Shown: in pieces, positions 11,975-57,194 of the stretch
How the letters are laid out: each line of letters opens with the position of its first letter
Numbering within the stretch: position 1 is the stretch's first letter
Assembly (NCBI GenBank): GCA_035307965.1
Contig: DATGHO010000038.1
Span: forward strand, 9,904-73,903
Direction: 5' to 3'
DNA: 64,000 nucleotides
From: Candidatus Acidiferrales bacterium
GTDB taxonomy: Bacteria > Acidobacteriota > Terriglobia > Acidiferrales > UBA7541
Translations under genes and position numbers: made by a program
Notes under the pieces: model-generated
The model's input: the letters and a program-made list of their open reading frames with translations, nothing else
Database searches by the model: none
What the model was told of the DNA's origin: nothing

Positions 11975-11992
11975 CCTTCTCCCGCTTCCCGC

Positions 11993-13042
11993 TCACCACT
12001 TCAGCAAAATCAATTCTGAGCAGAACCCCGGCCCCATCGCCCCCAATATTCCGTAGCTTCCCGGCTCTGGACGCCGGTTCGCTATCACGTCTTCGAGCAC
12101 CAGCAGCACCGACACCGACGACAAATTCCCAACCTTGGCCAGCGAATCCCACGAAGCTGCGAGTTCATCATTCTTCAAATCGAGCGCGTCCTCCACCGCT
12201 TCGAGCACTTTCGGCCCCCCCGTATGGAACACCCAGCTCGAAATATCTTCGCGCGTCAGCCCCAAATCGCCGAGGAACTGCTTCACATCTCTCCCCAGAT
12301 TTTGCTTCACCACGTCTGGCACGCCCGGTGACAGCACAATCTGAAAGCCTTTCTCCGAAATCTCCCAGCCCATGGTGCGTTCCGTGTCCGGGTAAAATGT
12401 CGAGCGCGTGGCGATAATCTCCGGCCCTTGGAAGTCTCGTTCATCGCCCGTAATGATCACCGCCGCAGCGCCATCGCCAAACAGCCCCGCGGAGATCAAA
12501 TTCGCCATCGACAGATCGTCGCGCTGAATCGTCAGCGAACACAGTTCCACTGCCAGCAGCACCGCCGTCTGTCCCGGAAACGCGCGAACGTAATCCGCGG
12601 CGCGCGCAATTCCCGCCGCGCCCGCCACGCACCCCAGGCCAAAAATCGGATTGCGCTTGATGTTCGGGCACAACCCCAAACGGTTTATAAGTCGCGCATC
12701 CAGCGACGGACTTGCAATTCCCGTCACCGAAACCACATAAATCGCATCCAGTTCTCGCGCCGGAAGCCCGATCGGCTTCAGCGCCGAGGTAATCGCCTCC
12801 TCGCCAATTTCCAACCCCGTCTGAATCCAGGTGTCGTTCGCTTCGCCCCAAGTAGAAAGCCCGTAGTATCCCTCCAGCGGCATCGACATGTAGCGTCCCT
12901 TAACGCTCACGTTCGCGTGCAGCTTGTCCAGCACTTCTGGTTTTTTCAGCCGGTCGCCCCAATATTGCTTCAGAGCGCCCACCAAAACTTCCTGGCTGAA
13001 GTAATTCTTGGGAAACGCGCCAGCAACGCTAGCGATTCTCAT
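11993..13042 (-). CDS. Type III polyketide synthase (chalcone/stilbene synthase family)
   Basis: The protein is 349 aa with a thiolase fold. It carries an active-site Cys context (GLGCVAGAAG) and the C-terminal GPGF signature (GAMGPGFCSE). Confidence 0.85.
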   Translation of the reverse strand: MRIASVAGAFPKNYFSQEVLVGALKQYWGDRLKKPEVLDKLHANVSVKGRYMSMPLEGYYGLSTWGEANDTWIQTGLEIGEEAITSALKPIGLPARELDAIYVVSVTGIASPSLDARLINRLGLCPNIKRNPIFGLGCVAGAAGIARAADYVRAFPGQTAVLLAVELCSLTIQRDDLSMANLISAGLFGDGAAAVIITGDERDFQGPEIIATRSTFYPDTERTMGWEISEKGFQIVLSPGVPDVVKQNLGRDVKQFLGDLGLTREDISSWVFHTGGPKVLEAVEDALDLKNDELAASWDSLAKVGNLSSVSVLLVLEDVIANRRPEPGSYGILGAMGPGFCSELILLKW

Positions 13043-13532
13043 TCGTCACCAATCCTCTCGGTTTTCGAGCGCGATTCGTCATACGGCTCACGCATTCCGC
13101 ATATAACGTCCATTTGCATGAGAACGCCGCCTCGCGTTTTGCTGGTTGCGGTTTTCACCGTTTGCGTTGAACTGCGCCAGCCCGCTTGAACAAAATTCGA
13201 ATATCGGAGTTTCCTTTTGCGATGCCGGTTAGGCCCTTGCGTGTCGCCCCACATTCTTATCCCTCAGCGCCGCTATCGCAAGCAATAATCTTCTGGCGTA
13301 TCCTGCGCCAGTTCCGCCGCCCTCGTCCTTTAAATTCGCGAAAAAGCCGCAGGAAAATGGGGAGTATAATGTCAGATCCCCAGAAAGACACGCTGAATTT
13401 ACTTTGATGCGCGCTTTTGCGGCTTTGTCTTCAAGAAGTGCGCGAAGTCAGCGCGGCTCCGGGAAGCCCTGTTTACCCATGCCGTGAATGTCGGCGTTCA
13501 CGCGGCTTTCGCGCTTTACGTCCCGGCGCTTG

Positions 13533-13973
13533 CTACAACGTTTGTCTTTTCCGTCGCGGGCGTGGCTCTTCACCCACGTCTGTACGAACTTGTTTTTCGT
13601 CGCGGTCTGCCGCTCTTTCCACGCCCTCGATAACTTCAGCTTCGTAATCCTGGCCCTCTTCGGCCAACTCCTTCACGCTTTCCGAATCCGCGTCTTCGAT
13701 ATCTGATAATCCTTCCAGATCGCCCGATTGCCCGGCTTCCAGCGTGCGCTCCGGCTCGCTTTCGGCCACAATTCCGGCGCGGTCGGAATTCAACCCGCGC
13801 GAGAGCCGCGCATTTCGTGCGCGCCTGTTTTTTGCTTCTCTGCGCGAACTCGCAGCCGTTCTTTTCCTCGATGTTTTCTTGGCGCTGGCCTTCTTCTTCG
13901 CCGCCATCCGCGTGCCGCCCTTTTTCTTTCTCTTTATGTTCTTTGCCACGGGAACTTTCTCCTCGACCTTCAA
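13533..13973 (-). CDS. Hypothetical, highly charged protein (Lys/Arg-rich N-half, Asp/Glu-rich C-half)
   Basis: The ORF is 146 aa, with an alternative start at MAAKKK (13907). Composition is low-complexity and no motif was recognised. Confidence 0.4.
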   Translation of the reverse strand: MKVEEKVPVAKNIKRKKKGGTRMAAKKKASAKKTSRKRTAASSRREAKNRRARNARLSRGLNSDRAGIVAESEPERTLEAGQSGDLEGLSDIEDADSESVKELAEEGQDYEAEVIEGVERAADRDEKQVRTDVGEEPRPRRKRQTL

Positions 13974-14026
13974 TTGTGCGCAGCCGGTGTCGTAGCCTCA
14001 AAACTTCACTTGCTGCCAATCTCCCG

Positions 14027-14593
14027 TCAATGCGGATACTCCCGATTGCCAAACGTGAAAACCACCCCCGCCGACAGCCATATGTTGTTCTGATGAGCCT
14101 GCAGAAACGGCGTGCGGTAGTAGTCCACCTCAATCGCCCGCACCGACCAGCGCCGCGTAAACTTCAAATCCAGTCCGCCGCCTGTCCTGAACGAGAACCC
14201 ATTCTCAGAATACTTCTGCCTTATCGACGTCAAATTCAAATCCAGCCGCGAAGCCCCCGCCAAAAATTCCGCAAATGGATTGAACATGCCAAACCTCGAA
14301 CGGTGATAAAACCGCGCGCCAATGTGGTCCCCATACATTCGCGTGTTGCCCTGCGGGATCGAACCGTATTGCCAGTCTCCATCAGCATAAATCTGCAGCC
14401 AATTCGTAACGTTGAGCGCCAACGATCCATATACTCCGTTTGTGTTTGGCCATCCTTGACCCGCCCGAAAATCCGTGAACGCGTACCCTCCGCCCAGTTC
14501 CAGCGTCATTCCTCGCTTTACGCCTGGAGTCTGCGCCGCCGCAGGCGCCGCCATGCACGCCGCCGCGCATACTGCTAACAGCCACCTCAGCAT
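14027..14593 (-). CDS. Outer-membrane beta-barrel protein (small 8-strand-type barrel)
   Basis: The signal peptide is MLRWLLAVCAAACMAAPAAAQ. The sequence shows alternating aromatic/Gly beta-strand patterns and the barrel-type end ...SAGVVFTFGN. Confidence 0.75.
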   Translation of the reverse strand: MLRWLLAVCAAACMAAPAAAQTPGVKRGMTLELGGGYAFTDFRAGQGWPNTNGVYGSLALNVTNWLQIYADGDWQYGSIPQGNTRMYGDHIGARFYHRSRFGMFNPFAEFLAGASRLDLNLTSIRQKYSENGFSFRTGGGLDLKFTRRWSVRAIEVDYYRTPFLQAHQNNIWLSAGVVFTFGNREYPH

Positions 14594-14836
14594 ATCTCAA
14601 CCTTTCCAGCCCAACAGGGCCGTCGCAACAATTCCCCGCAGACGCCATTCTGCGTGAGATCAAGCTGGGTTCCTTCTAGGGTGACAACTTTCCTCCGAAC
14701 TTTCAACCAACTTTCTCAATGAGAGCCTCTTCCCTCATCTTTAGATGCCCGCTGCTTCCCACGCGCTGCGAGAACACCATGCACATTCCCGCCGCGCTCA
14801 GGAACAGAGGTCAAGTGCGGACAATTCGCGGCGGGA

Positions 14837-15001
14837 CTAGTGCAGCAGGGAACTGAACTTCACGCCGAGATAGTACGGCCAGATCACAATGGCGAACACG
14901 CCCTTCCAAAAAGTGAGCTGCAAAAATCCTATCGTGAAAAGCCACGCCGCAAACCACAACCCGCCCACAAATCCGTGCTGCTCGATCTTTATTTTTTCCA
15001 T
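14837..15001 (-). CDS. Small two-helix membrane protein (54 aa)
   Basis: The product is MEKIKIEQHGFVGGLWFAAWLFTIGFLQLTFWKGVFAIVIWPYYLGVKFSSLLH. The upstream part of the track ORF is not protein-like. Confidence 0.45.
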   Translation of the reverse strand: MEKIKIEQHGFVGGLWFAAWLFTIGFLQLTFWKGVFAIVIWPYYLGVKFSSLLH

Positions 15002-15195
15002 GGCGCGCAGTATACGACGATTCTCTAATTTCATCCGATAAAACGGGGTCGCGTGTCTTCCAAGCCCTCCGGTGCGCCGCATTTGAGCAACCCTTTTGCC
15101 ATTCGCGCATCCAAATTTCAGCGACTCAGCAGCGTTTGCAGTCCTGCATTTCGGACCTTTTTTTGACGAACTTGTTTGACCTTGAGGCAAAACCA

Positions 15196-17223
15196 ATGCG
15201 CCGCCGCGCGCTGATCCTGCTCACGATGGCAATGCTCCTCCTCGAGGCCGCTTCTTGCGGAGGCAGCGGCTCGCGTCCTCCAGTTACCGTCACCGTAGCG
15301 GCAAATCCCACCAGCGTTCCCGTGGACGGAACTTCTTTTTTCACCGCTACAGTTGTGAATAGTTCGGATCAGAACGTCACTTGGTCCGTGGTAGGCGGCG
15401 CGGCCAATGGCTCGATCAGCTCCGCCGGAGTTTACACGGCGCCGGCAACCGTTCCGGCGAATCCGCAAGTCACCGTCACCGCGACTCCGCAGGCCAATCC
15501 CTTAACTTCCGGCCAGGCCAGCATTACCATAACGATCAGGGTCGCCGTCTCGCCGCCAAGCGCAAGTGTTCAAACGCTTAGAACCGCGTCTTTCGCCGCC
15601 TCTGTCCAGGGCTCGTCAAATCAGTCGGTCACCTGGGAAGTGAATGGAATCGCGGGCGGCAACAATTCTGTTGGCATCATCAGCGGCAGTGGTCTCTACC
15701 AGGCCCCTGAATCGGTCCCTGCAAACGCTTCCAGCGGCCAAACCATCTCCGTGAGCATCGAAGCCATCCCGCAGGCGAATCCATCCGTCTCCGCATCGGC
15801 CGTAGTCACGGTCACATCGCCCAATCAGCTCGGCGAAAATCTCCCCGTCAAACTCGGCAGTTCCGGCGGCAACATCAACGACGAAGACGCCACCGAATGC
15901 GCCGGTGGCACGCTTGGTTCGCTCGTGGTTCGCGCCGGAACGCAATACATTCTCAGCGACAATCACATCCTTGCCCGCAGTGACGCGGCCAGCCTCGGCG
16001 AAGCCATCATTCAGCCCGGCCTGATTGACACGCCCAGTCCCTGCGTGGCCAGCTCCGGCAGCAACGTCGTCGCTCATCTCTCGCAATTCATCAATATCGA
16101 GCAGCCGAATCCACCAGCCGACGCCGCCATCGCGCAGGTCGTCACCTCGCCTGCCAGCGTGGACTCTGCGGGCACGATCATCGAACTCGGCGACTCCACG
16201 CCCAATGGCATTCCCACCGACGAAGCTCCTGCCAGCACCATTCTTCCGGTTTCGTCGCTCGTGCCCAACAGCACCGCAGTTGCTAAAAGCGGTCGCAGCA
16301 CGGGCCTCACCTGTTCGACCATTGAAGCAGTAAACGTCGACGCATCAGTCCAATATCAGCGCGGGCTGGGCGGCTCCAGCTTCACCGCCCTCTATCACAA
16401 CCAAATCTCCGTGAACGGTGGCACGTTCAGCGCTGCGGGAGACTCCGGCTCGCTCATCGTTTCGCAAGCTGGCGCACAGCCCGTCGCTTTGCTCTACGCC
16501 GGCTCTTCTACTAACACAATTGGCGCGCCGGTCGCCACGGTTCTCGCCAATCTTGCCGACACCAATAACAACACGCCCACTTTTGTCGGGCTGGCCACTC
16601 GCGGCCCAGTTGCCGGCTGCACTTCTGCCGGCGCGGACGCGTTGGGCGCTACCGCATTGCAAACAAATCCCACAAAACCCACTGCCGCAGAAATTGCCAA
16701 AGCCGAAAGTGTAAAAAATCAAAAAGCGCCGCAACTGCTGTCTGATCCTTCCGTGCTGGCAATCGGTGTCGGCCGCAGCCTCGACCGTCCTAATCACGCT
16801 GCCATTGTCGTCTTCGTGCAAAAAGGCGAACCGCTGGTGCGCCCCGTCCCGCCCACTGTTGGCGGCGTGCTTACCCGCGTCGTCGCGACGCCATCGCCAA
16901 ACAAGACTGGCGTTCTCAATCAGCAATCCACCGCCGAACTCCTCAAAAAATCCGGCCTGCCCCAGCGCGCCAATCCCACTCCTGAAGAACTCGCCTCAGC
17001 AACGTCAGTAAAAAATAAATATTCTTCCTCGCTCGTACACCAGCCCGGAATTCTTGGCGTTGGCGTTACTTCCAGCCTCGACAATCCCAGCGACGCGGCC
17101 ATCATCGTTTACGTCGAGACAGGCAAGTCGCATAATCCCATTCCTCTCGAACTTGACGGCGTTCGCGTGCGCGTAAAATACACCGACAAATTTCGCGCCT
17201 ACTCGTGGGGCCGGCGCCTCTAG
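15196..17223 (+). CDS. Secreted protein: N-terminal Ig-like (BIG2-type) repeats plus chymotrypsin-fold (S1/alpha-lytic-like) serine peptidase domain
   Basis: The signal is MRRRALILLTMAMLLLEAASC, a possible lipoprotein Cys. Repeated VTWSV...G.ISSAGVYTAP modules follow. A GDSGS serine motif (AAGDSGSLIV) is present. Confidence 0.7.
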   Translation: MRRRALILLTMAMLLLEAASCGGSGSRPPVTVTVAANPTSVPVDGTSFFTATVVNSSDQNVTWSVVGGAANGSISSAGVYTAPATVPANPQVTVTATPQANPLTSGQASITITIRVAVSPPSASVQTLRTASFAASVQGSSNQSVTWEVNGIAGGNNSVGIISGSGLYQAPESVPANASSGQTISVSIEAIPQANPSVSASAVVTVTSPNQLGENLPVKLGSSGGNINDEDATECAGGTLGSLVVRAGTQYILSDNHILARSDAASLGEAIIQPGLIDTPSPCVASSGSNVVAHLSQFINIEQPNPPADAAIAQVVTSPASVDSAGTIIELGDSTPNGIPTDEAPASTILPVSSLVPNSTAVAKSGRSTGLTCSTIEAVNVDASVQYQRGLGGSSFTALYHNQISVNGGTFSAAGDSGSLIVSQAGAQPVALLYAGSSTNTIGAPVATVLANLADTNNNTPTFVGLATRGPVAGCTSAGADALGATALQTNPTKPTAAEIAKAESVKNQKAPQLLSDPSVLAIGVGRSLDRPNHAAIVVFVQKGEPLVRPVPPTVGGVLTRVVATPSPNKTGVLNQQSTAELLKKSGLPQRANPTPEELASATSVKNKYSSSLVHQPGILGVGVTSSLDNPSDAAIIVYVETGKSHNPIPLELDGVRVRVKYTDKFRAYSWGRRL

Positions 17224-17370: not shown

Positions 17371-19455
17371 ATGCCCACCGCAAAAGCTTCCCGAACTTCA
17401 ATGCCGCCGCGCGCCGATTCCGCTCAGCCGCAGCGCCGCGCACCCTCTACCGAGCCGGGCGACGGCCACAACAATAAGCCCTCCGTTCCGCTTGAATCCG
17501 TCATCATCACTGACGACCTCGGTAAGCGCCCTTCACGCCGCCCTCAGTTCGCCGCGGAGAATCGCGTATTGCTCGCGCTGGCGCAGGACATCGCGGATTG
17601 CCCGGAGCGCGTTTTCGACAAACTGGCGCACGGTGCTCTGGAACTTTGCCGCGCCCACTCCGCCGGCTTCACCGTGCTTGATGAGGACACCAATATCTTT
17701 CGGTGGCGCGCCGTTTCCGGACAATGGGCTGCGCATACCGGCGAAGTCGCGTCGGCAAATGTTGCTATTTGCAGTACGCTGCTTGAGCGGCCCGCTGCGC
17801 AACTCTTTCGCCGTCCGGAGCGCCACTTCACCTATCTGGCCGCGATTACCCCTCCTATTGAAGAGGGCCTGCTGGTCCCGTTTTACTCCAAAGGCAAGCT
17901 CGCCGGCGCCCTGTGGGTGTTGGCTCACGACCAGTCGCGGCGCTTCGATGCGGAGGATCTTCGCTTGGTCACTGACCTTGCCGCGTTCGCCGCAGCGGGA
18001 TACCAAATTTTGCGCGCCGCAGAGGCCGATGAGAAGGCTGACGCGGTGCGTTTGCGCAAGGTCAGCACAGAACTGATTCAAGCGGGCGATACAGGCGCCC
18101 TCTACACCAAAATTCTCGACGCCGCCATTGCCGTGATGCGTTCCCAGATGGGCAGCCTGCAGATGCTTTATCCCGAGCGCGGCGAGCTGCGGCTTCTGGC
18201 TTACAAAGGCTTTCATCCCAACTCGGCGAAGTTCTGGGAATGGGTGCGGCCCGCATCCGCCAGCACTTGTGGAATGGCTTTGCAAACTCGCGGGCGGATC
18301 ATTGTGCCGGACGTTGAGAATTGCGCCTTCATGGCCGGCACTGAGGACCTTCACTTCTATCGCAAGTCCGAAATTCGCGCCGTGCAATCCACGCCGCTGA
18401 TTTCCCGCTCCGGCGTTTTGCTGGGCATGATCTCCACTCATTGGAAGCAGCCGCACGATCCTTCGGAGCGCGACCTGCGCTTGCTGGACATCCTCGCGCG
18501 CCAGGCGGCGGACTTCATCGAGCGAACTCGGGCCGAAGCAGCGCTGAAGCGAGCCAACGATAAGCTCGAAGAGCGAGTGCAGGCGCGCACGCGCGAATTG
18601 CAGCAGCAGGTTAGCAAGACGCAGCGCGCCGAGGACGAGCTTCGCGCGGTGACTGCGCGCCTGTTCAAAATTCAGGATGAAGAGCGGCGCTACGTCGCTC
18701 GCGAGCTGCATGCCGGCGCGAGCCAAACGCTGGCGGCGCTGTCCATGAACCTTGGCAGGATCGCGCAAAATGTGGCGCGCCCCGATACACTTTTCGAAGT
18801 GGTGCAGGAATGCAACACTTTGATCGATAATCTGACGCGCGAAATCCGCACTGTTTCGTATCTTCTTCATCCCCCGCTGCTCGAGGATCTGGGCCTCGGC
18901 TTTGCGCTGCGCATTTACGCCCAGGGATTTTCCGAGCGCAGCGGCATTCGCGTCGAGGTCGAAGAAGACGAGAGTCTCGAGCGCCTGCCCAAAGATTCCG
19001 AGATTGCCGTCTTTCGTGTGATTCAGGAGAGCCTCACGAACATCCATCGCCACTCCGGCGCGTCTTCTGCGAAAATTCGCGTCTCTCACAACGATGGCGG
19101 CCTGCAAGTGAAAATCACCGACAATGGCAAAGGCATTTCCGCGGAAAAGCAGCGCGAACTGGCGGCCTCGGCGGAATCCGGCGTGGGCATCCTCGGCATG
19201 CGTGAACGCATTCGCCAGCTTGGCGGGACGTTCGAAATTACCTCGGGCATTCCGGTCGCGGGCGATGGGGTGACCCAGAGCAATACCGCTGCGTTTTCTG
19301 GGGCGTTCTCGCTGAATAGCGCGGCGGCCTCAACCGCTGAGGAGCGGGGCAAGCGGCGCGCCGCGAATCCCGGCACCTGCGTTAGCGTGACGTTGCCGCT
19401 GGCCAACGCCGCCCCTGGCGCACGGGGGGGGGGCAGCAAGCAGGTGAGCCGTTGA
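17371..19455 (+). CDS. GAF-domain sensor histidine kinase (HisKA_3 / NarX-DesK type, HATPase_c)
   Basis: Two GAF-like regions precede a coiled coil. The H-box is RELHAGASQTL and the N/G boxes are LTNIHRHSGA and GVGILGMRERI. No cognate response regulator is adjacent. Confidence 0.85.
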   Translation: MPTAKASRTSMPPRADSAQPQRRAPSTEPGDGHNNKPSVPLESVIITDDLGKRPSRRPQFAAENRVLLALAQDIADCPERVFDKLAHGALELCRAHSAGFTVLDEDTNIFRWRAVSGQWAAHTGEVASANVAICSTLLERPAAQLFRRPERHFTYLAAITPPIEEGLLVPFYSKGKLAGALWVLAHDQSRRFDAEDLRLVTDLAAFAAAGYQILRAAEADEKADAVRLRKVSTELIQAGDTGALYTKILDAAIAVMRSQMGSLQMLYPERGELRLLAYKGFHPNSAKFWEWVRPASASTCGMALQTRGRIIVPDVENCAFMAGTEDLHFYRKSEIRAVQSTPLISRSGVLLGMISTHWKQPHDPSERDLRLLDILARQAADFIERTRAEAALKRANDKLEERVQARTRELQQQVSKTQRAEDELRAVTARLFKIQDEERRYVARELHAGASQTLAALSMNLGRIAQNVARPDTLFEVVQECNTLIDNLTREIRTVSYLLHPPLLEDLGLGFALRIYAQGFSERSGIRVEVEEDESLERLPKDSEIAVFRVIQESLTNIHRHSGASSAKIRVSHNDGGLQVKITDNGKGISAEKQRELAASAESGVGILGMRERIRQLGGTFEITSGIPVAGDGVTQSNTAAFSGAFSLNSAAASTAEERGKRRAANPGTCVSVTLPLANAAPGARGGGSKQVSR

Positions 19456-19523
19456 CGGTGGATTCAGCAAGCCGCTTCGAGTTGTGATTGTGCGATGAGC
19501 GTCAGTTAGCCTCCGATATTCCC

Positions 19524-19648
19524 AGTGTCCGAAAACGGACATTCGCGCTAAAAAAACGGCGAAAAAACTCGATTAGAAATGGCCTCCCTCGTTTGTTTTG
19601 TGTAAGTTGCGTCATGTTCTAATTTCCCATAGAAACTCGATTAGAATT
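19524..19648 (+). repeat. 125-nt intergenic element, copy A (second copy at 57070..57194)
   Basis: Hand alignment with 57070..57194 gives 105/125 identities, no gaps, same orientation. The element contains the GTCCG-aaaa-CGGAC hairpin and ATTAGAA...TTCTAAT...ATTAGAA inverted motifs. Confidence 0.85.
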
Positions 19649-19736
19649 TTTGAGGCGGCGTGAAACGCGAAGCTACGGGTCGCGGATGGTGGCGGGTGAG
19701 TTTGAGAACACTCCGCTCACAATGCGGCGAAAGTTA

Positions 19737-19790
19737 TCGATTAGAAAAATGGAAGTGGCTGAAGAGGAGCGAGTTAGGCGAATTTCTAAT
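19737..19790 (+). repeat. Partial third copy of the tcgATTAGAAA ... TTTCTAAT hairpin module
   Basis: The 8-bp perfect inverted repeat ATTAGAAA (19740-47) / TTTCTAAT (19783-90) has the same arms as copies A and B. Confidence 0.6.
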
Positions 19791-19972
19791 TTTTTGATGC
19801 AGTGGCGAGTGGCTAGTGGCGAGTGACTAGATGGTTTGCGCTCCACAGCTGCGCAAATAGGAAGTCGAGAATCTGCCCGTCTGTTCCATTTTGGGAATTG
19901 AGTGCTGGCGATTGGCGCTGGCTTTGACTGCGGCGCGGGCGGCGAATTGGAGGTGCGTCCTGACATCGGCCA

Positions 19973-20227
19973 GTGGTAGCACGGAGCGGGCGCGGCGGGC
20001 AAGGGAATTGCAGCGAATGGGGAAAAACGATGAGTGAATGGGTGAGCGGGATCGTGCATGGGCGGCGCGCGATTACGCCGGAAACGGCGCTGCGGCTCGG
20101 GCGACTGTTCGGCACCACGGCGGAGTTTTGGGTGAATCTGCAGACGCGTTATGACCTGGAAATGACGCGCGGCCAGCAGGAGAAGAAGGTGGAGCGGGAA
20201 GTGCAGCCATTGCGGACTTTTGGATGA
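19973..20227 (+). pseudogene. Truncated/decayed HigA-family (XRE HTH) antitoxin remnant
   Basis: Only the C-terminal part survives in frame: ...SGIVHGRRAITPETALRLGRLFGTTAEFWVNLQTRYDLE... The usual N-terminal ~40 aa and any higB partner are missing. Upstream sequence is similar only in shifted frames. Confidence 0.6.
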
Positions 20228-20335
20228 ATCGAAAGCGCACGCTGGGTAATCTGCAAGGCTGGAAAAGCGAAAAGCCGCGTTTCCGCGGCCATTGTGCTTC
20301 TCTCAAATTTGCGACTGGCTTGCAGCCGGTGAAGT

Positions 20336-21346
20336 CTAGCGGGTCTTTACTGTCGCGCGCTCGCTCTGCATGGGAAGATGCTTCGGCTGGGAAGATGGAA
20401 GCTCATTTTCTCCGCTGCTGCAGCCAATGGGTTCAGCTGCCTCTAAGAACCCTTCGATGACGTTTTTCAGTCGAGCCAGGGCGCCCAGGGTACGAGCCTT
20501 TTCGAAATCAGACACGAACACGTCTCGGAAAAAGCCTCCTCTTGCGCCCTGTTCTAGCTCTTTTTCTACGCCCATCAGGGCGTCGATGAAGTCGTTCACC
20601 TTTTGCTGCAGAGTCTTTTTTATCTCAGTCCCGAGGCGGGTTTTTCCGTAGACCGAGTCGGCCAGTTCTTTCCGAGCCAAGTCATATATTTCAATGAGGG
20701 GCTTGCCAGGATTCTTGATGACTGTTGTCATGAACTTGGCAGTGACAAAGCGATTTGACAGGTGATTCTGTTTGATGAAAGTTGCGGTCTCAGCTTGCCT
20801 GCGGTGATCGTCAAGTCTTCCCAACTGGTGGGCGATTGTATAGTCCAGTTCCCCCTCGAAGAATTGCTCGCGAAGTTTGGGTGAGAGTCGGACGATTCTC
20901 ATGCGTTCGCGTAGTTGCTCCGCCTTGACCCCCAGTTTTGGCGCGACCTTGCCCCATTCGTCGGGACGGTCCCAAACGCCCAAAGCTTTGAGGCCCGTTT
21001 CTAGTGCAGTGACTTGCTCTTGAAATGTATAGTCGCGTGTTTGCATCATCCGACTGATTTTCCGGACGAGCAAATCGTTCTCGCTTGGCCGAGGAATAAT
21101 AATTGCGCTGAGGGTCTTCAGTCCCCCGGCCTTCGCGGCTCTCCACCTCCGTTCACCATCGAACAGGTCGTAAATAACTCTGCCCCGTTCATTGCCACGG
21201 GCAAACACCTGAATGGGGTCTGTCTGCCCTATCTGGGTAAGATTCTCCGCCAGCGAGTCAATATCGGCGGAATCAAATGTTTTCCTTAGGTTATCCGGGT
21301 CCGGCTGGATGTCCTCGATTGCGATTTCGCGAATGTTTTCTTTCAT
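20336..21346 (-). CDS. ParB/Srx-fold N-terminal domain protein (ParB-like CTPase/nuclease superfamily) with unrelated C-terminal half
   Basis: The N-terminal motif is IEDIQPDPDNLRK and the arginine box is DGERRWRAAK (GxRRxRA). An HTH-like middle segment follows. The gene lies 5 nt downstream of the preceding ORF and the sequence is lower-GC. Confidence 0.75.
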   Translation of the reverse strand: MKENIREIAIEDIQPDPDNLRKTFDSADIDSLAENLTQIGQTDPIQVFARGNERGRVIYDLFDGERRWRAAKAGGLKTLSAIIIPRPSENDLLVRKISRMMQTRDYTFQEQVTALETGLKALGVWDRPDEWGKVAPKLGVKAEQLRERMRIVRLSPKLREQFFEGELDYTIAHQLGRLDDHRRQAETATFIKQNHLSNRFVTAKFMTTVIKNPGKPLIEIYDLARKELADSVYGKTRLGTEIKKTLQQKVNDFIDALMGVEKELEQGARGGFFRDVFVSDFEKARTLGALARLKNVIEGFLEAAEPIGCSSGENELPSSQPKHLPMQSERATVKTR

Positions 21347-21351
21347 GATCT

Positions 21352-22131
21352 CTAAGGTTTCGACCTATCTAATTTTGCCGCGCCCTCACCCAACTCTTTT
21401 GGATCCTTCCCGATTATTTGCTTAAATATCTCATACATTTCGATGAGGTCGGAAAGTTCTTTATTTGCTCTGCGCTGAAGGTCAACATATGCCTTCGTTT
21501 GTTTCGCAAATATACGGAGCCGCCTGTCCTTTGGGTTCGTAAGCTGCTCGAAGTCTCCGAAGGTCATTCCACTATCCATGTTCAGTGCGGCCAGCCGCAG
21601 AGAACGAATTTCAATTGCGTTGTATCGCTCTTCAAATTCCTTCAGTAGCGCTTTGCGGTCAGGCCCTGGTGGAAGGCCCCGGGCATAACTTTCCAATGAC
21701 TTTGCTTGGGCCAGCTGGACGCGCGTCGCAGAACGAGTGCGAGTTCGGAATTCCTTTGACACCGTGTGTTCGATTTGGCCCGCCGCAAAGTAGCCCAGTA
21801 TTGGCGTTCGAAAGCCGTTCACTACTTTTGCGACTAAGTGCCAGCGGATCTCGCGGCCACGCCGATGCCAAATGAATCCCCACCCCTCAAAAGCTCCCTC
21901 AAACATGGCCCTGCATGCCACCCGCACCTTCTCAAATTCCTCATTTGCATGCCGCAGCACTCTTGCATCATACGCGGCGCGTTGCAGCGGGTCTGTTGGT
22001 GGTGGGCCTTCTAAAAGGCGGCCTATTTCTTCGCGGGTAAGGCCGGCCAAATTATTCTGTTCGATAATCTCTTGAACCCGAAGGCAGTACCGCTGGAACA
22101 CTGGGTCGAGAATGAATGAGGGCATGGCCAT
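21352..22131 (-). CDS. Hypothetical protein (about 260-275 aa), first gene of the ParB-like cassette
   Basis: This is a long clean ORF with helical, charged composition. No Walker A or any other motif was recognised. Alternative starts are ATG 22125 and GTG 22179. Confidence 0.6.
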   Translation of the reverse strand: MAMPSFILDPVFQRYCLRVQEIIEQNNLAGLTREEIGRLLEGPPPTDPLQRAAYDARVLRHANEEFEKVRVACRAMFEGAFEGWGFIWHRRGREIRWHLVAKVVNGFRTPILGYFAAGQIEHTVSKEFRTRTRSATRVQLAQAKSLESYARGLPPGPDRKALLKEFEERYNAIEIRSLRLAALNMDSGMTFGDFEQLTNPKDRRLRIFAKQTKAYVDLQRRANKELSDLIEMYEIFKQIIGKDPKELGEGAAKLDRSKP

Positions 22132-22259
22132 ATCTCCGAGAACTGGTGAGTGTATCACGTCCGAGTCCGCGAGGCGCACTATAGTTTATGCGATCATACT
22201 TACGACATGGGTACACATCGTTAAGCCACCAACCGGCTGGAGAGCCTACGCCACTTCGA

Positions 22260-24305
22260 CTACTTCAAGTCGGGAGGCAAGGGGTCGGACCAGATGTAGT
22301 GGGCGAACCAGTTGTAATTTTCCTGGGTGACGGCGCGAAGCTCTTTGGGTTTGGTGATGGGATGGCCGAAGCCGGTGTAGAGGACGAACTTCACGGGGAC
22401 GCCGCGGTCTTGCAGTCCATGATACAGCTCGAAAGAGTCCGGGACCGGGACGCGCGCGTCTTTGCTGCCTTGCTGGATGAGCGTGGGCGTGTGCGCGTGG
22501 TTGATGTAAGTGATGGGCGAAGTTTTTTTGTAAATTTCGGGATCGCTCCAGGGAGTGGCGCGCAAATACTGGCGCGTGAAGGGCGTGATGTCGGTGTTGA
22601 CGTAGTAGGTCATCCAGTCGGAAATGCCGGCGCCGACGGACACGGCGCAGAACTGGTCGCTGTAAGTGGTGATGAACGCGGAAATGTAGCCGCCTTCGCT
22701 CCAGCCCATGGAGCCGACGCGTTTGGGGTCCACGTAGCCCTGCGAAATTAAGTAATTCACGCCGGAAATGACGTCAGCGTAATCTCCTACGCCTAAATTG
22801 CGGACGTTGAGCGAGCGGAATTTTGCGCCGTAGCCAGCGGAGCCGCGATAGTTGGGCTCGAGAATCAAAGCGCCGCGAGCGGCGAAAAGTTCAGTGGGAT
22901 AGTAGCGGTCGGGCGAGCGCGTGGCGCGGCTGGTTCCGGTGGGCCCGCCGTGGATTTCGACGAGCAGAGGATATTTTTTCGAGGGATCGAAATTGGCGGG
23001 CTTGATGAGGATGCCTTCGACGGGCGTGCCATCGCCGGATTTCCAGTGGATGACTTCGCGAGTGGCGAGATGGAATTGCGAATATTGAGCGGAGATGTCG
23101 GTGAGTTTTTTGGGCAAAAAGAAATTTACGGGCGAAGTGTAGATTTCGAAGAAGGCGTTGTCGGCGGCGGCCGTGTAGGCGACGCGGTGGAAGTTGTGAG
23201 TGAAGCTGAAGCCGCCAGCGGCGATTTTGTCGGGCTTGGAGATGCGCGTGACGGCTTCCGTTTGCGGATTCAAGCGGAAGAGATAGGCGTAGGTGCGCTG
23301 CTGGGCTTCGAAATAAATTCCGTCGGGCGACCATTTGATGGCGCGAGCGTCTTCGTCAAAATTGGCGGTGAGGATTTTTGGCGCGCCGCCGGAAGCGGGC
23401 ACAACGTCAATGACGGAATTCGCGTAGAAGAAATATGGGTTGCCGTTAGCGGTGTTGAAGGCAATTTGCGAGCTGTCAGGCGACCAGACGGGATTTTCGC
23501 TGGGCGTGGGAGCGCCGGCGAGTTTTTTGACGGATTTATCGGCGACAGTGAGGACGTAAATATTGGCGGTGCCGAGGTCGGCGAGCGCAGGATCTTTGCT
23601 GGCGGTGAAGGCGATGCGCGTGGAGTCGGGCGACCAGCGAAAATCGCCGACGGTGAAATTTTCGCCGGAGGTGAGGCGCGCGGGCTTGGGAAGTTCGGTG
23701 GCGTTGGGCGAAGGGACGTCAATGAGCCAGAGATGCGTCATGGTGTAATCGTCGCCGATGATTTTGTAGTCGCCGTATTTTTTGACGCGCGCTTTGTGGG
23801 CGTCGGATTCGGGATCAGGAGAAGTGAAGGCGATGTGGCGGCCGTCGGGAGAAAAATCGAAGGAGTCGACGCCGGTTTCGACGTTGGTGATTTGGCGGGC
23901 TTCGCCGCCGGTTGGGGAAATTAAATAGAGCTGCGCGGTATCTTTTTTGGCGTTGGGGAGCGAGGATTCGCGCGAGGAAAGAAAGGCGAGCTGTTGGCCG
24001 TCGGGCGACCAGCGCGGATCGGTGCCGGACTTTGCGCCTTCGGTGAGCGGGAAAGTTTGGCCGGTGGCGATGTTGGCGAGCCAGATTTGCTGGACGAAGG
24101 CGTTTTGGTCCCAGTCGGTGTGCGTGAGTTGGTAGGCGACGAAGCGGCCGTCGGGAGAAATTTGCGGATTGGAGACGGATTTCATGGAGAGCGCTTGCTC
24201 GATGGTAGGCGCGGAGGGCGCTGCGGAGTTGGATTGCGCGAGCGCGGCGCAGGGGAGAAGAAAAATTGCAACAACTAAGGGCGCGATTCGCAGAGCTTTT
24301 TGCAT
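22260..24305 (-). CDS. S9-family serine peptidase (prolyl oligopeptidase / acylaminoacyl peptidase) with N-terminal beta-propeller
   Basis: A signal peptide is followed by TolB/WD40-like repeats (SPDG...). The nucleophile elbow is GWSEGGY. C-terminal Asp/His regions are present. Confidence 0.9.
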   Translation of the reverse strand: MQKALRIAPLVVAIFLLPCAALAQSNSAAPSAPTIEQALSMKSVSNPQISPDGRFVAYQLTHTDWDQNAFVQQIWLANIATGQTFPLTEGAKSGTDPRWSPDGQQLAFLSSRESSLPNAKKDTAQLYLISPTGGEARQITNVETGVDSFDFSPDGRHIAFTSPDPESDAHKARVKKYGDYKIIGDDYTMTHLWLIDVPSPNATELPKPARLTSGENFTVGDFRWSPDSTRIAFTASKDPALADLGTANIYVLTVADKSVKKLAGAPTPSENPVWSPDSSQIAFNTANGNPYFFYANSVIDVVPASGGAPKILTANFDEDARAIKWSPDGIYFEAQQRTYAYLFRLNPQTEAVTRISKPDKIAAGGFSFTHNFHRVAYTAAADNAFFEIYTSPVNFFLPKKLTDISAQYSQFHLATREVIHWKSGDGTPVEGILIKPANFDPSKKYPLLVEIHGGPTGTSRATRSPDRYYPTELFAARGALILEPNYRGSAGYGAKFRSLNVRNLGVGDYADVISGVNYLISQGYVDPKRVGSMGWSEGGYISAFITTYSDQFCAVSVGAGISDWMTYYVNTDITPFTRQYLRATPWSDPEIYKKTSPITYINHAHTPTLIQQGSKDARVPVPDSFELYHGLQDRGVPVKFVLYTGFGHPITKPKELRAVTQENYNWFAHYIWSDPLPPDLK

Positions 24306-26706: not shown

Positions 26707-27111
26707 CTATCGCTTCAGTTTGGAAATAAGGAAATCGCGGAGGACGATGGCGCTATTGTGCTCGTTATCACGGGCGCTGTAGAGCAAAGTTACATCGCCG
26801 CGGCGGATGGCTTCGAGGAGCGCGACTAATCCCCCAGGCTCGACTGACCGTCGACCCGAGGGCCCCTTCTGTGCCGCGAAATTTGCGCGAAGTTCGGCGA
26901 GGTAACGGCGACGGAATTCGGGCCAGCGTTCGAGTTTGTGACCGTACCAGACACGCAACCGCTGGCTGGGCGCGACATCTTTGAGCCAGGCGTCGAGGTG
27001 GAGAGATTCTTTTTTGATGCCGCGCGGCCAAAGGCGTTCAACGAGGTAGCGCGAAGAGGAATTCGGGGATTTTTGATGCGGGCGGTCGTAGACGCGGGCG
27101 ACTTCAATCAT
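26707..27111 (-). CDS. DUF488 family protein (short, YeaO-like)
   Basis: The product reads MIEVARVYD...YLVERLWPRG...WLKDVAPSQRLRVWYGH...WPEFRRRYLAEL...TLLYSARD. The start was set at the ATG at 27111. The upstream track extension runs through a REP element. Confidence 0.75.
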   Translation of the reverse strand: MIEVARVYDRPHQKSPNSSSRYLVERLWPRGIKKESLHLDAWLKDVAPSQRLRVWYGHKLERWPEFRRRYLAELRANFAAQKGPSGRRSVEPGGLVALLEAIRRGDVTLLYSARDNEHNSAIVLRDFLISKLKR

Positions 27112-27314
27112 CGAAATGACTCTCAACAAAAGTATAGACGCCGCAGCGCACGCGTCGCAACAATGCTCGAGGTTGAGGAGTTCGCGTGATAATTGTGATA
27201 CGAAGCTTCCGCAGCATTCGGGCCACAAAATGAAGTCCCGTACCGGGGACGTCCGTGGAATCAGCGGCTCCCAAGAGCGGTAGTTCCAGGGGCTAAAGCC
27301 CTTCGACAAGCGAA

Positions 27315-27440
27315 AAGCAGGTTCCTCGTCAGATGCTGGTCGCATCTTCGCTCGGAATGACAAGAAAGACTTAAAGCCGCAGATCTTCGCAACAGCGCCC
27401 CCGACAAAGGGCGCCGGGGCAAGGGAACTTCTGCGCTACA
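27315..27440 (+). repeat. Composite REP-like element (module R1 27315..27364 plus module R2 27373..27440)
   Basis: R1 has conserved flanks around an AGATGC/GCATCT hairpin. R2 reads aaagccGCAGAtcTTCGC...GCGCCCccgacaaaGGGCGC...gaacTTCTGCgctaca, a nested palindrome. Related copies lie at 29194, 60061 and 32844. Confidence 0.8.
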
Positions 27441-27446
27441 GTTAAA

Positions 27447-29006
27447 TCAATTTGAGGTCTGCTGCTCGGCGTATGGCTTGGCGGCGGGTGAAGTTGCCGG
27501 AGCGTGAAGGCCGCGGGCGAAACCTTGCCTGATCAAACTGAATATTGTGCGACGATTTTCAAAGATTGTTTTCACCCACGCGAAGCGGCCCATCTGCGGG
27601 AAATAAATTCCGCGGAAGCATAGACGAGAGATCAAAATATTGATGCGGCAGCCCAAAGGCTTGTCATTGATGGACTGCACGGCCTTTTCGATGGCCTGCG
27701 GACTGTAGCAGTTGAGCCAGCCCTTTCGAACTTCTTCGTGCGCTTCATCGATGCTCATCTTCAGCGGCGTGTGCGCCATGGCAAAAGGTATGAACTCCTG
27801 CCAATGCTTGACGCGCGTAAGGCGTCCGGCGGCTTCCAGACGTTTGTAGAGCGGCGTGGAAGGCAGCGGCGTGAGCAGGCCAAAAATCGGGAGGCCAGGC
27901 GGCCAGGTGCGGATCTGGTTCAAAGTGCGTTCGGCGACGCCGACTGTGTCATTGTCCATGCCGAAAATAAAAGACGTGATGGCATAGACGTTGCGCTGGG
28001 CGAGGCGTTCGAGAACGGCGGCGTATTCCGACGGCTTGTTGAAGCCTTTTTTCACATCGGCGAGATTGGCGGGGTCGATCGATTCCATGCCGATGAAAAT
28101 CCATTTGCCTCCGGAAGCGGCAATCAAATCCACAAGCTCTTCGTCGCGCAACAGATTGGCGCTGATTTGCGCGACCCAATGAACCTGGGCGTTTGCGGCG
28201 ATGATGTCGCGCAGCAGGGATTTGGTGCGTTTGATGTTGATGGCGAAATTATCGTCGATAAAAAAGACGGCGATCTGGCCGCCTTCTTTGCGGGCGCGCG
28301 CTTTGAGCAGGAGGAGTTCGTTGACCACGCTTTCATTGGAGCGAAAGCGGATGGAGTCGCCGAAAAATCCGGTGACGGTGCAGAATTCGCATCCGTAAGG
28401 GCAGCCGCGCCCGGACTCCATGGGAATAATGCGAAAACTTCCCCAGCCATCGCCGATGCGCTTCAGGAACGGATGCAATACCTTCGGCAATAAATTGAAT
28501 TGCTTAAGTTTGATAGTGTCCCAGGGAATTTTCGGATAGGGCTGAAGCGAAGGTTTGCGTTCCTGGCCAAAGGCGTCAACTGGCGCGTAAACCTCTTTGA
28601 GCGCGCCACGGGCGGCGTCTTCGACAATTTTGGGCCAAGTCTCATCGGCTTCGCCGAGCGCGACAGCGTCGGCGTGCTGCGGGCCGCCATCTTTTCCGAG
28701 AGCCTCGTCGGCCATTTCGGTGACGTGAGGACCGCCCATGACGACTTTCGCTCCGGCGGCGCGGACAGCGTCAGCCATACGATAAGCCTTGGCGATCATT
28801 CTGGTCATGGCGCCGATGCCAACGAGGCCGATGTTGTGCTCGCGGACGTAGCGCGCGATGCTTTGCTCGTTCATGGGCTGCGCGTTGCCGTCGATCAGCA
28901 CCACTTCGTGGCCGGGAGGAGTTAATGCTTGTAAGAGGAACATCCAAAGGTGGGGCATAAAATTGCGAGTGACGCCGTTGTCCGGGTTGTACAGTAAGAT
29001 TTTCAT
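27447..29006 (-). CDS. B12-binding-domain radical SAM protein (class B rSAM)
   Basis: The N-terminal Rossmann-like cobalamin domain begins MKILLYNP... and includes GIGAMT. The CxxxCxxC motif is CPYGCEFC. The start was set at the ATG at 29006. Confidence 0.85.
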   Translation of the reverse strand: MKILLYNPDNGVTRNFMPHLWMFLLQALTPPGHEVVLIDGNAQPMNEQSIARYVREHNIGLVGIGAMTRMIAKAYRMADAVRAAGAKVVMGGPHVTEMADEALGKDGGPQHADAVALGEADETWPKIVEDAARGALKEVYAPVDAFGQERKPSLQPYPKIPWDTIKLKQFNLLPKVLHPFLKRIGDGWGSFRIIPMESGRGCPYGCEFCTVTGFFGDSIRFRSNESVVNELLLLKARARKEGGQIAVFFIDDNFAINIKRTKSLLRDIIAANAQVHWVAQISANLLRDEELVDLIAASGGKWIFIGMESIDPANLADVKKGFNKPSEYAAVLERLAQRNVYAITSFIFGMDNDTVGVAERTLNQIRTWPPGLPIFGLLTPLPSTPLYKRLEAAGRLTRVKHWQEFIPFAMAHTPLKMSIDEAHEEVRKGWLNCYSPQAIEKAVQSINDKPLGCRINILISRLCFRGIYFPQMGRFAWVKTIFENRRTIFSLIRQGFARGLHAPATSPAAKPYAEQQTSN

Positions 29007-29170
29007 CGCGGTCCTTAGGGTGGAGCAAAGTGAAACGCAGACGGCGGCAATTATGCCACGGTTAATGATAATCAGAAAATAAAATCGAATTTGCCGTATG
29101 CTGGCGGGCAATTGATTCGATGCGCTGCTGCGGTAAAGGTTTGCCCTGTGCGGGACGAGCGGGCTAGCAG

Positions 29171-29261
29171 AAATCCGAATGACGGGGCACATCAAAAGCC
29201 CCAGATCTTCGCGAAGGGCGCCGCGACAACGAGGGACGGGGACGCGAAGTCTTGCGCTATA
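29171..29261 (+). repeat. REP-like element (R1 3'-flank fragment plus R2 copy)
   Basis: The fragment aaatccgaatgac is followed by aaagccccagatcttcgc...gcgaagtcttgcgctata. The TAG stop of the DUF488 gene (29259-29257) lies inside the element. Confidence 0.7.
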
Positions 29262-29865
29262 CGGACTTTGCCGACGCGGTTTGGTGCGCGGCGCGCTTCC
29301 TGGCGTAGGCGCGAGTGGCGCGATTGGGCGGGTAGGTGACGCGTTTGCCGCGAACGCGGGCGAAAGGCGTGAGCTTGTGAAGATTGCGGCGCGCGGGGGT
29401 CATGATGTGCTCAACGGCATGGCCGCGAACGGTGAGCGCGTCGGCGATGAGCGAGCGATGGCAGCGCCACGGAACGGCCTCGGCGCACATGGTAGCGCAG
29501 AGCTTGGTTTTTGCTAATTTCTCCAGGCGGGCGAGGGCGGCGGCGAATTCGGGAGTTTGCATGTAATCGGCGAAGCCGCGAAAGCTGGAATTCTGCCAGC
29601 CAGTGTTGACGGAATCGGCGCGGGCGCGGCGGAGGCCGCCGAGTTTCGGCAGATGCGTGTAGGCGATGTGCGCGCGTCGCACGGAGGCCGCGAGGGCTTC
29701 GCGGTTGAATTGCGGATTGTGGCGCGAGCGCGGGATGGTGCGAACGTCAACGAGGCACTTGACGCCGTGGGATTTGAGCAGCGCTAGAAATTCGGCGATG
29801 GAATGATTGGAATGGCCGACGGTGAAGATGGGCGGCTTGGCGCGAGGGGCGCGTTTGCGAGTCAC
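29257..29865 (-). CDS. DUF488 family protein (long form)
   Basis: The motifs IFTVGHSN...FLALLK...LVDVR and CAEAVPWRCHRSLIAD are present. The GTG start overlaps the AlkA-like stop (GTGA). Confidence 0.8.
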   Translation of the reverse strand: MTRKRAPRAKPPIFTVGHSNHSIAEFLALLKSHGVKCLVDVRTIPRSRHNPQFNREALAASVRRAHIAYTHLPKLGGLRRARADSVNTGWQNSSFRGFADYMQTPEFAAALARLEKLAKTKLCATMCAEAVPWRCHRSLIADALTVRGHAVEHIMTPARRNLHKLTPFARVRGKRVTYPPNRATRAYARKRAAHQTASAKSV

Positions 29866-30878: not shown

Positions 30879-30972
30879 GTTGTTATCATCTATCGTAAAT
30901 GCGGAAAGATGCAAACGTAGCCGGTGAGCGGCGGTGGCGGCGCCGCAAGTTTTCACAACGAAGGGAGTCACG

Positions 30973-57069: not shown

Positions 57070-57194
57070 AGTGTCCGGAAACGGACGTTTGCTCGAAAAA
57101 AATGTCGAAAAAACTCGATTAGAATTGGCATCGACCGTTTGTTTTCAATGAGTTGGCTCAATTTCTAATTTCCCATAGAAACTCGATTAGAATT
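57070..57194 (+). repeat. 125-nt intergenic element, copy B
   Basis: It shares 105/125 identities with 19524..19648 in the same orientation. It starts 4 nt after the plsC stop. Confidence 0.85.

Follow-up and report, generated by a model that had tools for sequence, protein, structure and literature searches.

An orphan ParB operon with an obligate, unannotated partner in uncultured soil, peat and sediment bacteria

We examined a 64,000-nucleotide stretch of DNA (hereafter the window) from contig DATGHO010000038.1 of a Candidatus Acidiferrales bacterium, in which a two-gene cassette had been singled out from the sequence as a ParB/Srx-fold protein with an unfamiliar upstream neighbor. We find that the cassette is a real, mobile and autonomous operon of an orphan ParB-family protein with an obligate partner. 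For its function we favor, at a probability of roughly 0.42, a nucleotide-gated ParB clamp and a dedicated DNA-binding co-factor that would act together on transcription or DNA accessibility. The two open reading frames (ORFs) lie on the minus strand with 5 nt between them, at 20336-21346 (336 aa) and 21352-22179 (275 aa). The mechanical ORF of the partner reaches a GTG at 22179, and its likely start is the ATG at nt 22125 (M19), giving 257 aa. This start is probable because a GGAG stands 8 nt upstream, all homologues begin there and the NCBI annotation has 257 aa. The partner genes of relatives carry purine-rich boxes at the same place as the GGAG of the window.

20336..21346, minus strand: ParB-like gene (gene 2), 336 aa plus stop, an orphan of the ParB family
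21352..22125, minus strand: partner gene (gene 1), 257 aa plus stop, an unannotated family
22134..22137, minus strand: Shine-Dalgarno GGAG, read from sequence, 8 nt before the ATG at 22125

The ParB-like family is well separated from other ParBs and rare: 5.8 billion proteins yield ~90 of its clusters (90% identity). A search with the ParB-like protein returned ~89 clusters at 90% identity with E<=1e-42, and the next matches, at 1e-13, were generic ParBs with the canonical C-terminal domain PF23552. With a family hidden Markov model (HMM), full-length members scored >290 bits, contig-end fragments ~138 bits or more, and other ParBs at most 110 bits. Family loci were gathered by exact look-up and by scans of species-representative genomes and JGI metagenomes, yielding ~50 loci. 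In ~40 loci the sequence extends 700 nt or more upstream, and in all of them the ParB-like gene is preceded by an ORF of 230-280 aa on its own strand, which ends -94 to +50 nt from the ParB-like start, with many overlaps of 1 or 4 nt; contig ends carry partial partner copies. All of these upstream ORFs merge into one family by iterated HMM. Tier 1 partners are 59-100% identical to the window protein, tier 2 partners are detectable by profile (that of L005, for example, at an hhalign probability of 98.8%), and tier 3 partners join only after two rounds of profile iteration. The iterated profile also picked up copies on which it had not been trained (L088, L110) and fragments (L100, L104, L114), and among the 4759 ORFs of all loci it matched nothing outside the partner family.

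Every locus that was located via the partner has the ParB-like gene downstream, and neither an orphan partner nor an orphan ParB-like copy was seen among the loci surveyed. The original prediction had named a pair that never co-occurs elsewhere as grounds for abandoning the module; because the partner is present in every testable locus, that is, every locus with enough upstream sequence, those grounds are absent. Pairwise identities of the ParB-like proteins and of their partners correlate at r=0.94 over 30 distinct pairs, a value that none of 2000 Mantel permutations reached, indicating that the pair is inherited and diverging as a unit. The partner diverges faster, with a mean identity of 27% vs 41% for the ParB-like protein. 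Three of 185,579 species-representative genomes, two Acidobacteriota and one Dehalococcoidales, encode the family, and further members come from metagenome-assembled genomes of Deltaproteobacteria and from peat, soil and sediment metagenomes. The pair spans at least three phyla, and all of its hosts are uncultured bacteria of soil, peat and sediment. By tblastn, the partner and the ParB-like C-terminal domain had no match in 72,556 plasmids or 50,697 phages, and IMG/VR held no member of either family (the partner was searched there with the tier-1 alignment).

We then considered what kind of ParB the second gene encodes. The 336-aa protein begins directly at its ParB N-terminal domain, which is followed by a helix-turn-helix (HTH) domain and a C-terminal domain specific to the family.

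21092..21340, minus strand: ParB_N (ParB/Srx NTP-binding) domain, residues 3-85; PF02195 at 52.9 bits vs a cut-off of 26.3, E=4e-14
21146..21157, minus strand: Box II P-motif G64-E65-R66-R67; DGERRWRA is invariant in 38 distinct members
21035..21064, minus strand: divergent Box III, K-I-S98-R99-M-M-Q102-T103-R-D, placed by alignment, where canonical ParBs have (L/I)ENxQRxDL
20750..20950, minus strand: ParB-type HTH DNA-binding domain, residues 133-199; PF17762 at 25.1 bits vs a cut-off of 22.6, E=1.9e-5
20432..20749, minus strand: family-specific C-terminal domain, ~residues 200-305, conserved, with a variable tail after it

The best solved-structure matches of the N-domain plus HTH are 6SDK (2.4e-12), 6T1F (1.8e-11) and the Noc structure 7NFU (5e-8), and the HTH aligns with those of the Spo0J, ParB and Noc structures. 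ParB_N and HTH_ParB are the only Pfam families matched at E<=1. The NCBIfam matches are confined to the Noc, parB_part, PRTRC_parB and RepB models; TIGR00180 (ParB) scores 52.1 bits, below its trusted cut-off of 58.45, and TIGR04285 (Noc) scores 59.6 bits vs a cut-off of 315. For a comparison of motifs, 38 distinct family members were aligned with B. subtilis Spo0J (6SDK) and Caulobacter ParB (6T1F). Box I is PDPxNLR in the family vs the canonical PNPxQPR, with the Arg retained, and the C-motif is GQ(T/L/M)D(P/E)I vs the canonical G(I/V)LQP, reading GQTDPIQVF in the window protein. The earlier report of an intact arginine box was correct: both IEDIQPDPDNLRK and DGERRWRAAK are present in the 336-aa protein, GERR is invariant in the family, and the stretch GERRWRA is identical to that of Caulobacter ParB. 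With its GERR phosphate motif intact, the N-domain is predicted to bind a nucleotide.

A feature that the original prediction did not mention is the deletion of the ENxxR motif of Box III. In the family, Box III reads (K/R)(K/R)(I/V/T)(S/A)-R-x-(M/L)-Q-(T/S)-x, and the E-N dipeptide aligns to a two-residue gap in all 38 members, while S98, R99 and Q102 are invariant across the 56-sequence alignment of the ParB-like family. Mutants of B. subtilis and Caulobacter ParB have established that the Glu and Asn of ENxxR are required for hydrolysis and for engagement of the N-gate. With these two residues deleted, canonical CTP hydrolysis by the ParB-like protein is doubtful, and judging from its sequence we expect nucleotide hydrolysis to be slow or absent. 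In ParB proteins the CTP pocket is built by residues of GxxR and ENxxR (PMC12409273). According to a recent survey, orphan ParBs often have a divergent Box III, and nucleotide specificity is not predictable from sequence or from AlphaFold 3 models (10.1101/2025.10.10.680097).

Several lines of evidence place this protein outside parAB systems, as had been claimed. The ParA-binding motif [LIFV]G[KR]G[LIFV], as defined in the same survey (10.1101/2025.10.10.680097), is present in 0 of 46 family members. No ORF with a deviant Walker A motif (KGGxGK[ST]) lies in the fetched flanks of the family loci, up to ~6-8 kb where the contig allows, and the partner has no Walker A. The C-terminal half is non-canonical, as was also noted earlier: PF23552 matched neither the window protein nor any of 13 C-terminal segments and was seen only in non-family search matches, the generic ParBs, beside PF02195 and PF17762. 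The domain at ~200-305 that takes its place has no sequence relative in Pfam or the Protein Data Bank (PDB). Gene 2 is a ParB-family protein outside parAB, an 'orphan' without ParA. Within its C-terminal domain, a Walker-A-like ADSVYGKT (window 20627-20650, residues 233-240) fits [AG]xxxxGK[ST]; we set this match aside as chance, the Gly being Ala in most relatives.

The partner proved as unrecognizable as had been stated. It has no family match in Pfam, NCBIfam or PADLOC, its sole PHROG match is at E=0.23, and a profile search of the PDB returned only noise (E>0.8). A HMMER search of 1.84 billion representatives recovered only ~10 true clusters, and no relative with an annotation. Together with the absence of plasmid and phage matches, these results also indicate that the partner is not a known replication or partition factor. 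We found no enzymatic or catalytic motif in it, and no transmembrane segment in either protein, leaving the ParB-type nucleotide pocket as the only recognizable enzymatic-type domain in the pair. The partner is basic (pI 9.6), with a net charge of +5 over residues 113-160. In an AlphaFold2 (AF2) model of the full-length protein, the per-residue confidence score (pLDDT) is 72 overall and >90 for ORF residues 25-128, after which come long helices; the C-terminal half of the model looks like a coiled coil.

21790..22125, minus strand: partner N-domain, residues 1-112; AF2 pLDDT 93.6 and predicted TM-score (pTM) 0.86 for the N-domain alone with a deeper alignment
21721..21756, minus strand: basic linker KEFRTRTRSATR (TRTRS), which follows the N-domain; low pLDDT in the full-length model

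The modeled N-domain runs a1-b1-a2-a3-b2-b3-b4, the order of a winged helix, and its third helix is unusually long at 31 residues; we describe the domain as winged-helix-like on the strength of this model. Foldseek searches of PDB and BFVD with the N-domain returned nothing below E=0.4; the top matches are weak, all with E>1, and are the winged-helix regulators MepR, MarR and PurR. A Foldseek search of PDB with the full-length model (pLDDT 72) was discarded as meaningless, helical matches dominating it. In an alignment of 34 diverse members, T128 of the linker is the sole invariant residue of the whole partner family, and R129 is near-invariant.

Base composition sets the cassette apart from the rest of the window. 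At 52.8% GC, the cassette is the minimum among 1.8-kb stretches of the window (mean 57.9%, sd 1.5%), and 0.6% of 1.8-kb windows are as GC-poor. GC at third codon positions is 54-60% in the cassette vs 71-74% for the genes on its flanks (histidine kinase, S9 peptidase and GH20). The hand counts that had first suggested a foreign composition were essentially right, at 45.0% (20701-20760), 38.3% (21421-21480) and 60.0% (23001-23060, where 58% had been given). Its composition marks the cassette as foreign, and we take the two genes to be an operon gained by horizontal transfer. An S9 peptidase gene forms one flank, and downstream of the cassette lies the decayed toxin-antitoxin (TA) gene that had been described there, a HigA remnant with only the C-terminal half of the TIGR02607 profile; its N-terminal half is absent in every frame, and there is no higB.

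19973-20227, plus strand: truncated higA antitoxin gene, covering only positions 36-79 of the 81-position TIGR02607 profile, in the downstream flank of the cassette
22149..22157, minus strand: extended -10-like element TGaTACACT, read from the sequence, ~25 nt upstream of the partner start codon
20273..20290, minus strand: terminator-like hairpin GGCCGCGGAAACGCGGCT followed by the T-rich tail TTTCGCTTTT, 46 nt past the ParB-like stop

The cassette appears to have its own extended -10 promoter, as far as can be read from the sequence. TGnTAnnnT elements stand at a similar upstream distance in the tier-1 relatives L002, L004, L011 and L079, and further upstream in L075, within regions that are otherwise unrelated to one another; a scan for -35/-10 consensus did not flag the TGaTACACT of the window. 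The terminator-like hairpin is only suggestive, because such sites are no more numerous in this region than in shuffled sequence. Taken together, the recurring upstream elements and the hairpin suggest that the conserved unit consists of a promoter plus the two genes. No structured RNA was found within 19300-22400 with Rfam at E<=1.

Orphan proteins of the ParB-CTPase fold are already known from mobile DNA, some of them together with co-factors, and we compared the pair with the described members of this category. Closest in design is BisD of ICEclc, an integrative and conjugative element (ICE): it has a ParB N-terminal part and an all-helical C-domain of unknown origin and needs the partner BisC, and the bisD-bisC gene pair is widespread on ICEs, where BisDC activates transcription (PMC12409273). 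In both systems a C-terminal domain without known relatives is joined to a ParB N-domain and HTH, a putative dimer that binds DNA is encoded by an obligate partner gene next door, ParA plays no role, and the genes reside on horizontally mobile DNA. BisD, however, is 550 aa long with a 70-aa linker and keeps ENxxR (E136-N137-E-L-R140), which the ParB-like protein has lost, and BisC distantly resembles FlhC, while our partner combines a winged-helix-like domain with helices. BisDC also belongs to a conserved ICE backbone and has bisS sites and a defined regulon, while our pair has a variable neighborhood, no site that we could find, and no ICE backbone genes in any family locus examined. What the two systems share is design, as judged from the published description of BisD and BisC; no sequence homology to either came to light in the NCBIfam scan.

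In the KorB systems of plasmid RK2, KorB is a CTP-dependent sliding clamp, and a small DNA-bound partner, KorA (PMC11790492) or TrbA (PMC13584720), locks it and represses transcription. As proposed here, the pair would share with them a ParB-family clamp that is captured by a DNA-bound partner and acts on transcription. KorB differs in being encoded in korA-incC-korB with a ParA (IncC) and in also serving partition, and KorA is an HTH repressor of ~100 aa; on our side, the ParB-like protein matches neither Pfam KorB nor KorB_C, no gene for a ParA or a small HTH protein adjoins the pair, and the plasmid collection does not contain it. The survey by Kaljevic et al. 2025 reports that orphan ParBs are common and linked to mobile elements (10.1101/2025.10.10.680097) and sorts them by domain fusions and nucleotide specificity (10.1101/2025.10.10.680097; PMC12704722). 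Its orphan ParBs share with ours a position outside parAB, the lack of a ParA-binding motif, a divergent Box III and signs of horizontal transfer (PMC12704722). The main text of that survey makes no mention of coiled-coil, winged-helix or Acidobacteria (10.1101/2025.10.10.680097). From Spo0J and Noc the protein is set apart by scores below the NCBIfam cut-offs, the lack of ENxxR, of a ParA peptide and of a parA gene, and a different C-terminal domain. Its place is among the orphan ParBs that act as DNA-binding switches, which include KorB, BisD, Noc and VirB. The Sulfolobus plasmid pNOB8, with its AspA-ParB-ParA system, likewise places the gene of a winged-helix protein immediately before that of a ParB-like adaptor. 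This plasmid is archaeal, its AspA is 93 aa long and its system includes a ParA motor; the resemblance to our pair is one of gene order only.

Because the closest working models are KorB-KorA/TrbA and BisD-BisC, we favor the clamp with a co-factor over other explanations. The ParB-like protein would dimerize and load at a specific DNA site as a nucleotide-gated clamp, which, lacking ENxxR, would probably turn over nucleotide slowly or never. The partner would bind DNA, the clamp or both, possibly via the C-terminal domain peculiar to the ParB-like family, and would capture or read out the clamp as KorA/TrbA lock KorB and as BisC serves BisD. On this proposal the pair would control transcription or silence DNA, and would not drive segregation through ParA. 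Some sub-clades encode yet another DNA-binding protein directly upstream of the pair, a MerR (L226) or a HARE-HTH protein (L012, L083).

A number of observations weigh against this proposal. Since the N-domain of the partner has no significant structural relative, the case for its binding of DNA is built on topology and charge only. Likewise, synteny and co-divergence are what suggest that the two proteins interact physically, and neither protein showed homology to KorA, KorB_C or BisC in Pfam and NCBIfam searches. The neighborhoods differ in almost every locus, and there is no conserved set of neighboring target genes. Nor did a cis-acting site emerge: we found no shared palindrome within 400 nt of the module, no flanking 10-mers shared above shuffles, no excess synonymous-site conservation inside the genes in a codon-aware analysis, and no canonical parS in the window with up to 2 mismatches, a non-canonical site elsewhere being possible.

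The foremost competing explanation is anti-phage or anti-plasmid defense or exclusion, in which a clamp on invading DNA and its coiled-coil partner would silence or sequester that DNA or recruit neighboring effectors; we regard this as unlikely, although the patchy spread across phyla, the foreign GC and the existence of autonomous promoter-plus-two-gene units in variable regions would suit it. The neighborhoods vary from locus to locus, with nothing beyond the two genes universally conserved, and defense-related genes recur in them. TA genes lie near the pair in the window, L002 and L005, and the TA neighbors across loci include Phd/ParE, PemK and PIN genes; L005 has a DISARM-like DUF1156 methylase with an SNF2 helicase; L224 has AAA_15/SMC_N; the contig with P0172 carries an integrase, a C5 methylase, NotI and Vsr upstream of the pair and AlpA with a second integrase downstream; and in L082 and L086 a gene for a 522-aa GHKL (HATPase_c_3) ATPase lies on the opposite strand. 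By raw count, the Pfam families that recur most often in 136 neighboring proteins from 22 loci are DNA methylases. Several loci lie among housekeeping genes, namely scpAB (L004), hrcA-grpE-dnaK (L008) and tmk (L224).

Neither protein matched any of 5027 PADLOC models (PADLOC-DB 2.0, E<=1), and neither has a nuclease, NADase, pore or other effector domain or a transmembrane segment. The original prediction had raised the idea of a defense module and had likened the pair to DUF262/GmrSD systems. The former finds support only in the neighborhoods, where TA, restriction-modification, GHKL and integrase genes recur, and no effector is recognizable in either protein; the latter fails because the ParB HTH is kept and neither gene has a nuclease domain (no DUF262 or HNH/DUF1524) or a PADLOC match. 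Its description of an undescribed two-component module distinct from parAB stands. A special form of the defense explanation is immunity or exclusion without an effector, in which the ENxxR-less clamp would load onto incoming DNA irreversibly and the partner would polymerize on the clamp or bridge it, silencing or sequestering the DNA uncut. We think this improbable; if true, immunity by uncut silencing would be a new defense principle made from segregation parts.

A similarly low chance attaches to a TA or addiction-like system, in which a growth-inhibitory ParB-fold protein would be neutralized by an upstream winged-helix partner that also autoregulates the operon, compare AbiEi/AbiEii. The tight or overlapping genes (-94 to +50 nt, many at -4 or -1), the apparent promoter of their own, the proximity of other TA genes and the faster evolution of the upstream partner than of the downstream protein would all fit, and the ParB-CTPase fold is known to act as the ATPase toxin ToxB with an immunity protein (10.64898/2026.05.05.722872). 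ToxB, however, has no DNA binding or HTH, whereas the ParB-like protein retains the ParB HTH; for components of a type II TA system the two proteins are large, neither was seen as an orphan copy, and there is no Pfam match to AbiE or any other TA family.

Segregation being the best-known role of the ParB family, the pair might instead serve ParA-independent maintenance or organization, tethering or positioning an excised island or a chromosomal region (in Noc-like or hitch-hiking fashion) with the partner as anchor. One locus does lie between two integrases with an AlpA excisionase-type gene, and a coiled-coil partner would be compatible with a scaffold. We nevertheless give this an equally low chance: an NTPase motor and a ParA-binding motif are both missing, the plasmid, phage and IMG/VR collections do not contain the pair, and most loci lack an integrase or replication gene within the sequence surveyed. 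No parS-like site was found, neither protein has a hydrophobic transmembrane-like segment, and the ParB-like protein falls far below the NCBIfam Noc cut-off. Chance adjacency or decaying, non-functional genes, an idea for which the decayed neighboring higA might speak, is refuted by the locus census, with both ORFs intact and the pair found in ~50 loci of at least three phyla with invariant motifs and co-divergence.

On the reading that we favor, a clamp and its co-factor, the module bears on a wider question, as ParB-family CTP switches do more than segregate DNA, yet few have a defined co-factor (KorB-KorA/TrbA, BisD-BisC). It would be a third independent solution, in which the partner fold and the C-terminal domain are new and the nucleotide pocket naturally lacks ENxxR. 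Searches of Pfam, NCBIfam, PHROGs, PADLOC, PDB and the full-text literature returned no description of the partner family, the C-terminal domain, the ENxxR-less Box III or the strict two-gene unit. A compact autonomous unit of 1.9 kb that moves between phyla is a minimal, cloneable system, and it sits where defense and addiction genes accumulate. For specialists it raises the questions of how partners capture ParB clamps and of what a clamp does without its hydrolysis motif. The rarity of the family and its restriction to uncultured soil, peat and sediment bacteria limit the weight of these points.

In some sub-clades the neighborhood of the pair has features of its own. Tier-2 loci (L008 7005-8105; L082 6985-10184; L086 7012-10202; L088 2530-5160; L089 466-3118) share extra conserved neighbors, including a weak B12-binding/radical-SAM-like protein of 366-542 aa that is 29-54% identical between sub-clades and 83-86% within them, and in L082 and L086-L089 the gene immediately before the pair encodes a conserved unknown protein of 336-424 aa. 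In that sub-clade, such neighbors may belong to a larger system as further components. The B12/radical-SAM gene of the window (27447-29195) has no homology to the radical-SAM-like genes beside tier-2 pairs, and we rejected a tie between it and the pair. It is part of a minus-strand cluster at window 26707-31382 that comprises DUF488, a B12-binding radical SAM protein, a second DUF488 and a 506-aa HhH-GPD protein.

The HARE-HTH proteins of the Dehalococcoidales-type loci (L012 4375-5082; L083 760-1509) are 235-249 aa long, have a coiled coil and are encoded on the same strand directly upstream of the partner; a relationship to the partner was rejected at an hhalign probability of 0.1%. In tier 3 (L226 7408-7998; L227 6708-7298), the MerR_1 regulator gene stops 2 nt before the partner gene and is itself preceded by HTH_3, PDDEXK_1 and three unknown genes. 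Genes for Ser/Thr protein kinases adjoin the pair in two of seven distinct tier-1 loci (L001 4355-7621; L011 7126-8373) and also match PADLOC PD-T4-6 kinase models; because Acidobacteriota are rich in kinases, this adjacency is possibly a coincidence. L001 further encodes, 1-6 kb downstream of its tier-1 pair (10871-16509), a 954-aa protein with a faint DNA_pol_B_2 match and a Cas1, a region that may be a casposon-like element.

Within the window, a dispersed repeat of ~125 nt occurs at 19524-19648 and at 57070-57194, the two copies being 84% identical. Each copy contains the 14-mer TTCTAATCGAGTTT twice at a spacing of 68 nt, for 4 exact matches in the window, a count that 0 of 100 shuffles equaled. 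The repeat may be a small non-coding mobile element or one resembling repetitive extragenic palindromic (REP) sequences.

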